Assembly (NCBI GenBank): GCA_000146465.1
Contig: CP001942.1
Reading direction: 5' to 3' (one strand)
Length of the DNA: 64,000 bases
Made by a program: the position numbers and the translations under genes. Every line of letters begins with the position of its first letter. Within the stretch, counting starts at the first letter, position 1. This document shows, one piece after another, positions 53,917-56,871 of the stretch. The notes below the pieces were generated by a model that saw only the letters and a list, made by a program, of their open reading frames with translations, did not search any database and had not been told where the DNA came from.

Positions 53917-55296
53917 CTACTTGTAGATGGGATGGGCGTCTACGAGGGCAAGGACCCTTTTCTTCAGATCGGCGGCAGCGGGGCTGGAGGACAAGAGGGC
54001 AGACGCTGTTTTCTGGAGCTCTGCCTTTGGGATGCTCTTCCCTGGGAATGTCTCTCTGCAGAGCTCGACGACGCCGTTGATTATGGCGGCAAGCTCTCTC
54101 ATGTCATGTGGGCCAAGGCCCCTGGCAGTGACGGCATATGTGCCTATGCGGATTCCGGATGGGTTGAGGGGGCTTGAGTCACCGGCAATGGTGTTTCTGT
54201 TGAGGCTGATTCCCAGGATGTCGCACACATGCTCGACAGCGGTGGCGTTGACGTCCTTGTTCTTGAGGTCTACAAGGAACATGTGGTTGTCTGTTCCGCC
54301 TGTGGGGATGTCGAAGCCCAGGGACAGCAGATGGGCGGAGAGTGCTTTAGAGTTTTCGACGACACACCTGGCGTACTCTGCAAACTCGGGGGTTGCGGCG
54401 TGGAGAAGAGCCGAAGCGATTCCAGCGATTGTGTGGTTGTGGGGGCCGCCCTGGAGCATGGGGAAGACGGCGAAGTTGATCTTTGTGTCCAGGTCGATGG
54501 AGACGGCGTTCTTTGTAACTGTTTTCCTGTAGAAGATGAGGGCGCCACGGGGGCCTCGAAGGCCTTTCTGGGTTGTTGTCATGACCACGTCGCAGTGGTT
54601 GAAGGGGCTGTTCATCAGGCCACATGCAACCAGAGGAGAGATGTGGGAGATGTCGGCAAAGAGAAAGGCGTTGTTGGAGGCAGCCAGGGAGGAAAGCCTC
54701 TTGTAGTCGATGTCTCTGGAGTATGCGCTGTACCCGCAGATCAGGATGTGAGGCTGGAAGTTGTTGAAGGCATCCTCGAGGGCATTGTAGTCGATGAAGC
54801 CGTCGGGGCCTATTCTGTAGGCTCTTGAGTCGAAGTAAACGCTTGTGGCCGATATCTTCCTGGTCTTTGTCCTGTATCCGTGTGTCAGGTGGCCTCCAGA
54901 TGGAAGATCGAGGCCCATGATTCTTCCTCCGGGAGGAACGAGGGCTGTATAGACGGCAAAGTTGGCTGGGCTCCCCGAGTATGGTTGGACATTGACGCCC
55001 CAGACTGCTGGGTCGAGGCCGAAGAGCGAGAGAGCCCTCTTCTGGCAAAGGGTCTCGATCTTGTCTATCCATTGTGTTCCTCCGTAGTACCGTTCTCCCA
55101 CTCTCCCCTCGGAATACTTGTTGGTAAGGACCGACCCGCAGGCCTCCATCACGCTTTGGTGGACGTAGTTTTCACTGGCTATCAGATTTATTGTCTTTTG
55201 CTGCCTTGCAGCCTCTCCGCAGATCAGGGCATGGAGCTCTGGATCCACTGTTTCCATCGGGCCTGTCCAGAAGCCCTCTCCTCTTCCCTTTGTCAT
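53917..55296 (-). CDS. SHMT: Serine hydroxymethyltransferase
   Basis: 459 aa. LIASENYVHQSVMEACGSVLTNKYSEGRVGERYYGG and the PLP-lysine region TTTTQKGLRGPRG. Confidence 0.95.
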   Translation of the reverse strand: MTKGRGEGFWTGPMETVDPELHALICGEAARQQKTINLIASENYVHQSVMEACGSVLTNKYSEGRVGERYYGGTQWIDKIETLCQKRALSLFGLDPAVWGVNVQPYSGSPANFAVYTALVPPGGRIMGLDLPSGGHLTHGYRTKTRKISATSVYFDSRAYRIGPDGFIDYNALEDAFNNFQPHILICGYSAYSRDIDYKRLSSLAASNNAFLFADISHISPLVACGLMNSPFNHCDVVMTTTQKGLRGPRGALIFYRKTVTKNAVSIDLDTKINFAVFPMLQGGPHNHTIAGIASALLHAATPEFAEYARCVVENSKALSAHLLSLGFDIPTGGTDNHMFLVDLKNKDVNATAVEHVCDILGISLNRNTIAGDSSPLNPSGIRIGTYAVTARGLGPHDMRELAAIINGVVELCRETFPGKSIPKAELQKTASALLSSSPAAADLKKRVLALVDAHPIYK

Positions 55297-55342
55297 GGCT
55301 TGTCCTTCCCCAAAACTTAAATACTTGTTGGAGGGAAGATTT

Positions 55343-56227
55343 TCAGACGCTCATGTTCATCTGGATTGGAGGATGAGGGTTGTACCCCACAAGCTCGAAG
55401 TCCTCGAACTCGAAGTCTTCGATTTCCACTCTTGTTCCCTTTGGATTAACAAAGAGCTTTGGGAACTCTCGGGGCGTTCTTTGGAGCTGTAGCCTGAGGG
55501 AGTCGATGTGGTCAAGATACACATGTGCATCCCCCAGGAAGTGGACAAACTCTCCAGGCCGGAGGCCTGTCAGATGGGCTATGATTATTGTGAGCAGAGA
55601 GTAGGAAGCTATGTTGAAGGGCACGCCCAGGCCCATGTCTCCCGACCTTTGGTACATTGCACAGTTCAGCTTTCCATCCATCACATTGAATTGGAAGAGA
55701 ACATGGCAGGGAGGGAGAGCCATCTTGGGAAGGGCCAGGGGGTTCCATGCACACACAACCATCCTTCGGCTCTCTGGGTTGTTCTTGATCGACTCGATCA
55801 CATCCCTGATCTGGTCGATGCCCTGGCCCTTATAGTCTGAGCTGGATGTCTGGTACTCTGCACCGAAATGCCTCCATTGGAACCCGTATATTGGGCCTAA
55901 ATCTCCTTCCTCTCTGTCCAGACCCATGGACTGCAGGAACTGCTTGGATCCGTTTTTCTTCCAGATCATGACACCTTTTTTCTCGAGGATGGCGGAGTCT
56001 GTCTGGGCCCTCAGGAAGAACAGAAGCTCCTCGACAATGCCTTTGTAGAAGACCCTCTTTGTTGTCAGCAGGGGAAATGTGTTGTCTTCGAGGGAAAACC
56101 TCATTGATGCCCCGAAGATGGACAGGGTTCCTGTGCCGGTTCTGTCTTGCCTCTTGACACCCTTTTCGAGGATGTGGGCAATCAGATCGAGGTACTGGTG
56201 TTCTGGATGTCTTGTTTCTTGGGTCAT
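55343..56227 (-). CDS. TS: Thymidylate synthase (monofunctional)
   Basis: The conserved TS core [55 protein letters not shown] is present, running to the C-terminal ...IQMNMSV. The track ORF (to 56437) begins with about 70 residues of Arg/His-rich non-TS sequence and would overlap DHFR. The real start is most likely the internal Met [26 protein letters not shown] at 56227..56225, giving about 294 aa. Confidence 0.9.
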
Positions 56228-56256
56228 CTGATGTTTTTGGAGGGTTGGAAGGGCTA

Positions 56257-56871
56257 CTAAGGATGTAGTTTGGTGTAAATGAACATCTTGAAGGAGATGC
56301 CGCCTTCGTTGAAGATGTTTTCTTCTGGGATGTAGAAGGCATCTACAAGGGTGGTGTCCACAAGCCTGGCGACATCGCGAGTGATGTCTCTCTTTTGGTA
56401 GGAAGACCAGTCGACCTGAGGGAAGAACACATCGCATTCTGGGGACTCGTGGACCTCTGTGACAAACATGGCCTGGACCCTGCCTGTCTGGATTGCAAGG
56501 GCATAGATGTCATGTCCTCCGATGACAAAGGTTGCAGGAGATGGGGGAAGAGGTAGATGGTCGAGGGCGGCGAAGCTTGGGATGAAGAAGGTGTTCTGGG
56601 AATGGGGGAGGGAGGATCTTGACAAGACGACATTGATGCGGTTTTGAAGGGGCCTGAAGCGCGAGGGGATGGAGTGCCATGTCTTTCTGCCCATGACGAC
56701 GACATTTGATTTGGAGGGGGAGAGGCTGATGTGGTCGGGGGAAAGGATAGGGACGCTCTGGGAGAGGATTCTGAACCAGGCCATGTCTGTCTTGAGGGGA
56801 TGTTTCCAGGGGAGTTTCCCGTGTCTTCCTATGCCTTGGTTTGCAGCAAGAGCCACAATTAAGGCAATCAT
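56257..56871 (-). CDS. DHFR: Dihydrofolate reductase (monofunctional)
   Basis: 204 aa. [34 protein letters not shown] and [11 protein letters not shown] are present. Only 30 bp lie between its stop and the TS start. Confidence 0.9.

Follow-up and report, generated by a model that had tools for sequence, protein, structure and literature searches.

The stretch of DNA analysed here (the window) comprises 64,000 nucleotides of contig CP001942.1 in assembly GCA_000146465.1. The genes under study lie on its minus strand between positions 53917 and 56871 and code for DHFR (dihydrofolate reductase), TS (thymidylate synthase) and SHMT (serine hydroxymethyltransferase). Very probably, they are the thymidylate-cycle genes native to chromosome I of Encephalitozoon intestinalis. 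This set is composed of a separate eukaryote-type DHFR and TS and a cytosolic-type SHMT, lies in the middle of a conserved six-gene subtelomeric string within a GC-rich triplicated block, and would be expressed without an operon. The cluster is a known, annotated and conserved subtelomeric housekeeping cluster that has already been described. A literature search by locus tag gave no matches. An operon-like mechanism appears neither needed nor favoured.

All three enzymes gave strong Pfam matches, and the minus-strand open reading frames (ORFs) were found adjacent and co-oriented. The initial annotation, which had named them and described this arrangement, was right in both respects. DHFR (56257..56871, minus strand) has 204 amino acids (aa). 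It matched PF00186 with an E-value of 2e-29 and a score of 102.7 bits against a gathering cut-off of 25. Its length is that of a monofunctional enzyme, and its homologues are DHFRs. The protein is 100% identical to the NCBI dihydrofolate reductase of E. intestinalis ATCC 50506, and its identities with the enzymes of E. cuniculi, E. romaleae and E. hellem are 67%, 65% and 62%, respectively. TS (55343..56227, minus strand) has 294 aa and matched PF00303 over the whole profile (positions 1-266 of 266, E-value 6e-113). Its ThyA-type domain is full-length, and the catalytic cysteine was found in a PCH motif. TS is also 100% identical to its counterpart in E. intestinalis ATCC 50506, and the two identities establish the Encephalitozoon affinity that had been suggested from the letters of the window. 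The mechanical TS ORF is 364 aa long and extends upstream to 56437, overlapping DHFR. The internal ATG at 56227 was taken as the start because all of the orthologues have 290-294 aa. SHMT (53917..55296, minus strand) is of the eukaryotic cytosolic type, has 459 aa and matched PF00464 at positions 2-399 of 399 with an E-value of 4e-160. The lysine that binds pyridoxal phosphate is present in a TTTQK motif (window positions 54560-54580), in which glutamine takes the place of the usual preceding histidine. The TTTQK motif also occurs in the SHMTs of E. cuniculi and two further lineages (L006 and L008, described below), and the canonical histidine (TTTHK) is found in E. hellem and E. romaleae. The region from 51.5 to 57 kb also contains long alternative-frame and antisense ORFs of up to 478 aa (e.g. 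51776-53212, 53927-54532 and 53927-54828). They were rejected as by-products of GC3-rich coding (GC3, the GC content of third codon positions).

DHFR and TS are split by a TAG stop, a spacer of 29 nt and a change of frame. As had been proposed, they are two genes and not a bifunctional fusion. Of the two spacer sizes given earlier, 46 bp for TS-SHMT was exact, and the DHFR-TS spacer measured 29 bp instead of 30 bp. Three non-homologous genes of one pathway adjoin, which is the adjacency expected of a eukaryotic metabolic gene cluster. The chance contiguity of three pre-named genes among about 1,800 is roughly 6/N^2, or about 2e-6. This value is our own estimate, and the genes were chosen post hoc.

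The cluster is located in a GC-rich subtelomeric segmental duplication (51483..59961). By blastn, this block is 99.9% identical to three chromosome ends (L001, L002 and L003) of the telomere-to-telomere (T2T) assembly of E. intestinalis ATCC 50506 (CP075158-CP075168; Mascarenhas dos Santos 2023). The copies lie at both ends of chromosome I (CP075158.1) and on CP075165.1, with exact copies of DHFR (GCA_024399295.1). CP075165.1 is chromosome VIII if the accession series follows chromosome order, and it has the same core neighbours as E. cuniculi AL590448. The three T2T copies show 0 mismatches and 3-7 small indels over about 15.4 kb, none of them inside 51483-59961. All three carry DHFR, TS and SHMT and run through a NAP/SET-like gene to the same edge. 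The block is found at three chromosome ends in (near-)identical form, and therefore E. intestinalis has three identical copies of each enzyme gene. The core-side edge at 51483 falls in the 60-bp spacer between the chitin synthase gene and the NAP/SET-like gene. The block shows the features that mark the EXT1-type repeats of Dia 2016: the gene order, the presence at multiple chromosome ends, and a location from the core to the ribosomal DNA (rDNA) with a shift in composition.

The GC content steps from 0.36 to 0.56 at this edge. It stays at 0.36-0.41 as far as about 51.4 kb and lies at 0.50-0.61 from 51.5 kb outward. The GC3 values are 0.65-0.73 in the five minus-strand genes of the block, 0.58 in the aminopeptidase gene and 0.41 in the chitin synthase gene. 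Both contrasts with the core side agree with the initial annotation, which had put the cluster into a block of distinct composition. The GC step coincides with the edge of inter-end homology at eight chromosome ends of E. intestinalis, E. cuniculi and E. hellem. The coincidence holds on E. cuniculi chromosome VIII too, where the edge lies 37 nt inside SHMT. The GC step tracks the homology edge, and therefore composition follows repeat status and not gene function. An abrupt rise in subtelomeric GC is a published trait of the genus Encephalitozoon. Recombination or gene conversion between ends is the most likely process by which the three copies would be kept (near-)identical, and it would also account for the GC3 enrichment. 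A composition that tracks the edge fits concerted evolution with GC-biased conversion, a mechanism that we infer. The initial annotation had also suggested that the cluster may move, or be lost, as a block. The duplication at three ends agrees with movement as a block. However, the duplicated unit is larger than the cluster and includes unrelated genes: it also holds the M1 aminopeptidase, the Atm1-like ABC transporter and the NAP/SET-like gene, together with interAE and interD genes in the T2T assembly. Moreover, TS and SHMT are parted on E. cuniculi chromosome VIII.

The gene order was compared with that of other genomes. The string of aminopeptidase (on the opposite strand) and DHFR-TS-SHMT-ABC-NAP is found in E. 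cuniculi (at both ends of chromosome I), E. hellem, E. romaleae and the relative L006, whose DHFR is 57% identical. In L008, a Logan contig of frog gut metagenomic DNA with 48% DHFR identity, DHFR-TS-SHMT-ABC is kept and a NUDIX gene lies upstream instead of the aminopeptidase gene. The synteny comparison that had been suggested thus gave a divided result. The order is conserved in six lineages alongside unrelated neighbours, but it is absent from four others, in which DHFR (Amphiamblys and L007) or TS (Conglomerata obtusa and L016) stands alone, and it is split on E. cuniculi chromosome VIII. E. hellem has two copies, one of which (CP119062.1, locus 10657-11540) carries TS as two ORFs of 145 and 149 aa, indicating a frameshift or a sequencing error, and this copy is internal on a 262-kb chromosome and not terminal. 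The L016 sequence is annotated as 'Thymidylate synthase 3-like' in the ant assembly of Nylanderia fulva (SGBU01000351.1). It is 66% identical to E. intestinalis TS, above any other animal match, and could stem from a contaminating microsporidian contig or from a transfer.

Rather than being merely inherited synteny, the adjacency could have been kept because selection favours joint regulation or dosage of the dTMP-cycle genes, for example S-phase expression in one chromatin domain and triplication as a unit. A priori, one would hardly expect three consecutive enzymes of one cycle to be contiguous. The order survives at DHFR identities of 48-57%, even with the changed upstream neighbour in L008, and all three genes are present in all three block copies of E. 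intestinalis. DHFR is followed by TS also in an unrelated Tara Oceans scaffold of a compact eukaryote (ERZ28653990, locus 229-2441), in which DHFR lies directly upstream of TS. On the other hand, the ABC, NAP/SET and aminopeptidase genes are equally conserved and have no folate link, and general microsporidian synteny suffices to explain the order. The DHFR-TS pair without SHMT on E. cuniculi chromosome VIII and the unlinked genes of the four lineages named above also count against selection on the three genes as a set. Taken together, a selected metabolic cluster is unlikely. In the Tara Oceans scaffold, tblastn located DHFR at 229-759 and TS, in two pieces, at 1359-2441, and the gene caller of the source reported one DHFR-TS product of 469 aa. 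Its TS is among the closest to microsporidian TS.

The spacers were inspected for start and stop signals. In E. cuniculi, 5' untranslated regions are shorter than 7 nt, and a CCC/GGG-like motif after an AT-rich patch lies upstream of nearly every ATG (Peyretaillade 2009, PMC2803860). The supplement of that study lists a signal for each of ECU01_0140, 0170, 0180, 0190, 0200 and 0210, and these strings are identical to the E. cuniculi spacers extracted here. The DHFR-TS spacer corresponds to ECU01_0180, the TS-SHMT spacer to ECU01_0190, and the divergent spacer to ECU01_0140 and ECU01_0170. Similar features were found in the window. The DHFR-TS spacer, TAGCCCTTCCAACCCTCCAAAAACATCAG (56228..56256, minus strand), has 29 nt with CCC motifs and an A-rich patch, and it contains no AAUAAA or AUUAAA. 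The TS-SHMT spacer (55297..55342, minus strand) has 46 nt and carries the element TTCCCTCCA-N-TATTTAA-N-GGAGGGG just upstream of the SHMT ATG. The SHMT-ABC spacer (53854..53916, minus strand) has 63 nt and carries ATTAAA at 53908-53913 and AATAAA at 53877-53882, after which CCCCCTCCCC precedes the ABC ATG. The divergent spacer between the aminopeptidase gene and DHFR (56872..56914) has 43 bp and is AT-rich, with GGG by the aminopeptidase ATG and TCC by the DHFR ATG. Four-fold degenerate sites are only 32-47% identical across the species and are near saturation. Against shuffles, the mean z values of spacer conservation are 4.4 for TS-SHMT, 3.4 for SHMT-ABC, 3.2 for aminopeptidase-DHFR and 0.9 for DHFR-TS. 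The TTCCCTCCA-TATTTAA element is kept in four Encephalitozoon species and in the relative L006, and it is a candidate SHMT core promoter. The string TTTATTAAA directly 3' of the SHMT stop is kept in the four species. An RNA hairpin in the TS-SHMT spacer, formed by CCCTCC...GGAGGG around TATTTAA, was unsupported, since RNAalifold scored it at only -7 kcal/mol and the covariation term was unfavourable.

In E. intestinalis, the sense strand of the spacers behind DHFR and TS contains neither AAUAAA nor AUUAAA. Counted from the DHFR start, the first canonical poly(A) hexamer is an AATAAA inside SHMT (55187..55192, minus strand), 151 nt downstream of the TS stop, in the codons ACA-ATA-AAT of the TINLIASEN motif. 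It occurs at SHMT+104 with identical codons in all four Encephalitozoon species, while nearby synonymous sites vary. The prior from codon usage is 0.07-0.15 per species. As a hypothesis only, this hexamer may be a candidate 3'-end signal of TS and DHFR. An AUUAAA immediately after the SHMT stop is conserved. An AAUAAA or AUUAAA is present in the DHFR-TS spacer of E. hellem and E. romaleae, and in L008 an AUUAAA lies right after the TS stop. Because the spacers of E. intestinalis behind DHFR and TS contain no canonical poly(A) hexamer, the transcripts of these two genes probably continue into the next gene and as far as SHMT. Each gene would initiate from its own AT-rich and CCC/GGG element a few nt upstream of the ATG. 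The 3'-end formation would be leaky, with candidate stop points at the AAUAAA 104 nt into SHMT and at the AUUAAA just after the SHMT stop. In E. cuniculi, stochastic use of AAUAAA lets mono- and multi-gene transcripts coexist (Peyretaillade 2009, PMC2803860), and overlapping transcripts reportedly occur for the most part in spores. Judged from these motifs, the expression of the cluster most likely follows the general Encephalitozoon mode and not that of an operon. A contig of 1268 bp from the Logan assembly of ERR13302946 is 100% identical to 55756-57023 of the window and covers the 5' part of TS, DHFR and the start of the aminopeptidase gene. If ERR13302946 were RNA-seq, this contig would directly show transcription across the spacers.

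A more specific arrangement may be drawn from the same hexamers, in which the three genes form a nested 3'-co-terminal unit. The DHFR and TS mRNAs would end at the AAUAAA in SHMT codons 35-37 or at the AUUAAA after SHMT, and the output of the enzymes would be coupled. CCCTCC-TATTTAA-GGAGGG would act as both terminator bypass and promoter, and dosage would be controlled via triplication in the proposed heterochromatic end domain. We regard this arrangement as improbable.

Very improbable, too, is an operon-like unit, in which DHFR-TS-SHMT (perhaps with ABC) would be transcribed from one promoter upstream of DHFR into a functional polycistronic mRNA, the spacers being tiny because internal promoters would be unneeded. 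The missing hexamers after the DHFR and TS stops, with the first ones inside SHMT and just after its stop, would agree with such a unit. So would the unconserved DHFR-TS spacer, the multi-gene transcripts of E. cuniculi and the four-gene order kept down to 48% DHFR identity. However, conserved TATA-like and GGG/CCC elements lie at promoter distance in the TS-SHMT and SHMT-ABC spacers, signals have been published genome-wide for each orthologous E. cuniculi gene (Peyretaillade 2009, PMC2803860), and the overlapping transcripts belong largely to the spore stage. The hexamers in the DHFR-TS spacer of E. hellem and E. romaleae and after the TS stop of L008 also speak against it. Spacer length was rejected as specific operon evidence, since spacers of 29 and 46 bp are ordinary for the window. 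Crude ORF-based spacers in the window core have a median of about 66 bp, with 12 of 38 at 46 bp or less and 6 of 38 at 29 bp or less. Eukaryotic ribosomes rarely translate downstream ORFs of polycistronic mRNAs. The co-oriented run comprises six consecutive genes and includes unrelated ones. The short spacers had been taken as fitting read-through or shared transcription. They do not specifically point to shared transcription, given their ordinary length, the start signal of each gene, a read-through that is genome-wide and the six genes on one strand.

An origin of the GC-rich block outside the microsporidia was also considered. The nearest relatives of DHFR are found in other microsporidia, including the early-branching Amphiamblys, and then in fungi. 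The best matches of SHMT in the PDB are cytosolic-type enzymes (1cj0, 1ls3, 1rvu and others; about 485 bits), which we take to be mammalian SHMTs. The SHMT entries of about 405-420 aa, presumably bacterial, scored about 315 bits. The best PDB match of TS is 3kgb ('Thymidylate synthase 1/2', 551 bits), which we take to be the E. cuniculi enzyme, and it is followed by animal TS at about 425 bits and then by protist and fungal TS. The retrievable homologue lists of TS and SHMT came without fungal sampling. All three enzymes appear to be eukaryote-type, and nothing in their homology suggests bacterial acquisition. A bacterial or foreign origin was rejected on the homology ranking and on the composition that tracks the homology edge. 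The proposal that the block is a mobile cassette acquired horizontally from bacteria or the host could draw on the abrupt GC step, on the folate-related genes that horizontal transfer is known to have brought into E. hellem and E. romaleae and on the closest TS matches outside the microsporidia, which are animal rather than fungal, but it is extremely unlikely given the eukaryote-type proteins, the microsporidian and then fungal relatives of DHFR, an SHMT far nearer to the cytosolic type than to the entries of about 405-420 aa, a GC-richness common to the whole subtelomere and rDNA that tracks the homology edge at eight ends, the lack of mobile-element genes flanking the cluster, and the slow evolution of animal TS, from which animal-like scores are also expected.

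Several points weigh against the preferred explanation, a native gene set in a triplicated end block with a start signal for each gene. First, the copies may be identical in part because repeats were polished during assembly. Second, a mutational or replication-related bias at chromosome ends, discussed in Dia 2016 (PMC4704409), would give the same GC pattern as the GC-biased conversion assumed above. Third, we infer promoter use and 3' ends from motifs only. CCC/GGG motifs are expected to be fairly frequent by chance in GC-rich spacers, and the DHFR-TS spacer shows no conservation beyond that of shuffles (z 0.9). The latter makes a separate TS promoter the weakest link of the proposed expression mode. 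Fourth, the window departs from the T2T assembly distal to 59961.

The neighbouring genes were also assigned. The ABC half-transporter (52009..53853, minus strand) has 614 aa with PF00005 and PF00664. Its full-length PDB matches (7n58, 4myc and 7vgf) are iron-sulphur cluster exporters of the Atm1/ABCB7/ABCB25 type. The transporter has no evident folate role as judged from its predicted family, though it adjoins SHMT in every clustered lineage. The last gene of the duplicated block codes for a small NAP/SET-like protein (51510..52043, minus strand) with a weak PF00956 match, and NAP/SET family is the name given to the E. cuniculi counterpart in Dia 2016 (PMC4704409). With the first ATG as start, its ORF shares 35 nt with the end of the ABC gene (52009-52043), and the overlap is 23 nt in the T2T annotation. 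A downstream ATG may be the true start because other species have ABC-NAP spacers of 30-51 nt. After this gene comes the core neighbour, chitin synthase, which ends at 51449. On the other side, the M1-family aminopeptidase gene (56915..59503, plus strand) is divergent from DHFR and codes for 862 aa with PF01433, PF17900 and PF11838.

Over 46257-59961, the window follows the right arm of T2T chromosome I collinearly at 99.9% identity, and chitin synthase is the last core gene of that arm. There are 8 small differences, none of them in DHFR, TS, SHMT or ABC. The homology to T2T chromosome I ends at 59961, and the remainder of the window (59962-64000) consists of about 230 bp and then an rDNA unit (60190..63974, plus strand), with small-subunit rRNA at 60190-61484 (Rfam RF02542, 1113 bits) and large-subunit rRNA at 61594-63974 (RF02543, 1414 bits). 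This unit marks the chromosome-end side of the block. In the T2T assembly, two interAE/B and two interD genes are distal to the aminopeptidase gene, and rDNA does not follow directly. In the 2010 assembly (Corradi 2010, CP001942-), rDNA was joined to the chromosome ends by PCR. The distal difference is either a real variation in subtelomere length or a PCR-join artefact of the older assembly. The plus-strand GC skew rises to +0.36 to +0.48 from the aminopeptidase gene outward (56000-64000). It matches the G-enrichment in E. cuniculi that starts beyond the dhfr-ts cluster (Dia 2016, PMC4704409).

The cluster illustrates that essential genes of nucleotide metabolism live in recombining chromosome-end repeats of the smallest eukaryotic genomes. 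Such end repeats are GC-enriched and have been proposed to be heterochromatic, and their composition follows the repeat edge rather than gene function. DHFR and TS are drug targets, and therefore three identical copies bear on antifolate susceptibility and on resistance by gene conversion. This study adds to the published description a chromosome VIII copy that in E. intestinalis reaches further than its E. cuniculi counterpart, a GC step that falls on the homology edge at eight ends, the conserved TS-SHMT spacer element and the AAUAAA fixed inside SHMT. These could guide transcript mapping.

Three known systems and the published genomes allow a comparison. The annotated genomes of E. intestinalis ATCC 50506 (Corradi 2010; Mascarenhas dos Santos 2023) contain the same locus. 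The bifunctional DHFR-TS of many protists (apicomplexans, kinetoplastids) and of plants has the same DHFR-then-TS order and a functional coupling, and both domains are homologous. However, the two enzymes are fused there, whereas E. intestinalis has two ORFs, as in fungi and animals. The read-through of compact microsporidian genomes (Williams 2005; Corradi 2008; Peyretaillade 2009, PMC2803860) is alike in its tiny spacers, its CCC/GGG start signals and its poly(A) hexamers that are absent from spacers or lie inside the downstream gene. Mixed transcripts would be expected from this system, in which nothing is specific to the DHFR-TS-SHMT cluster. The closest known system is EXT1 of E. cuniculi (ECU01_0140 and ECU01_0170 to ECU01_0210; Dia 2016, PMC4704409), the precedent to which the initial annotation had rightly pointed. 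There, aminopeptidase-dhfr-ts forms EXT1-2 with three copies, and SHMT-ABC-NAP/SET forms EXT1-3, which is found on chromosome I only. The two species share gene content, order and orientation, the position between core and rDNA, a copy at each end of chromosome I and one on VIII, elevated GC and GC3, and the core neighbours (chitin synthase; UBX/aldolase). The spacers are 35, 50 and 72 bp in E. cuniculi against 29, 46 and 63 bp in E. intestinalis. The proteins are 61-78% identical, with synonymous sites near saturation. The main difference concerns chromosome VIII. The E. cuniculi copy stops 37 nt into SHMT, and on AL590448.1 (locus about 11626) the TS-SHMT spacer and the SHMT stump are kept before the core genes. 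E. cuniculi therefore has SHMT-ABC-NAP twice, whereas E. intestinalis has three full copies.

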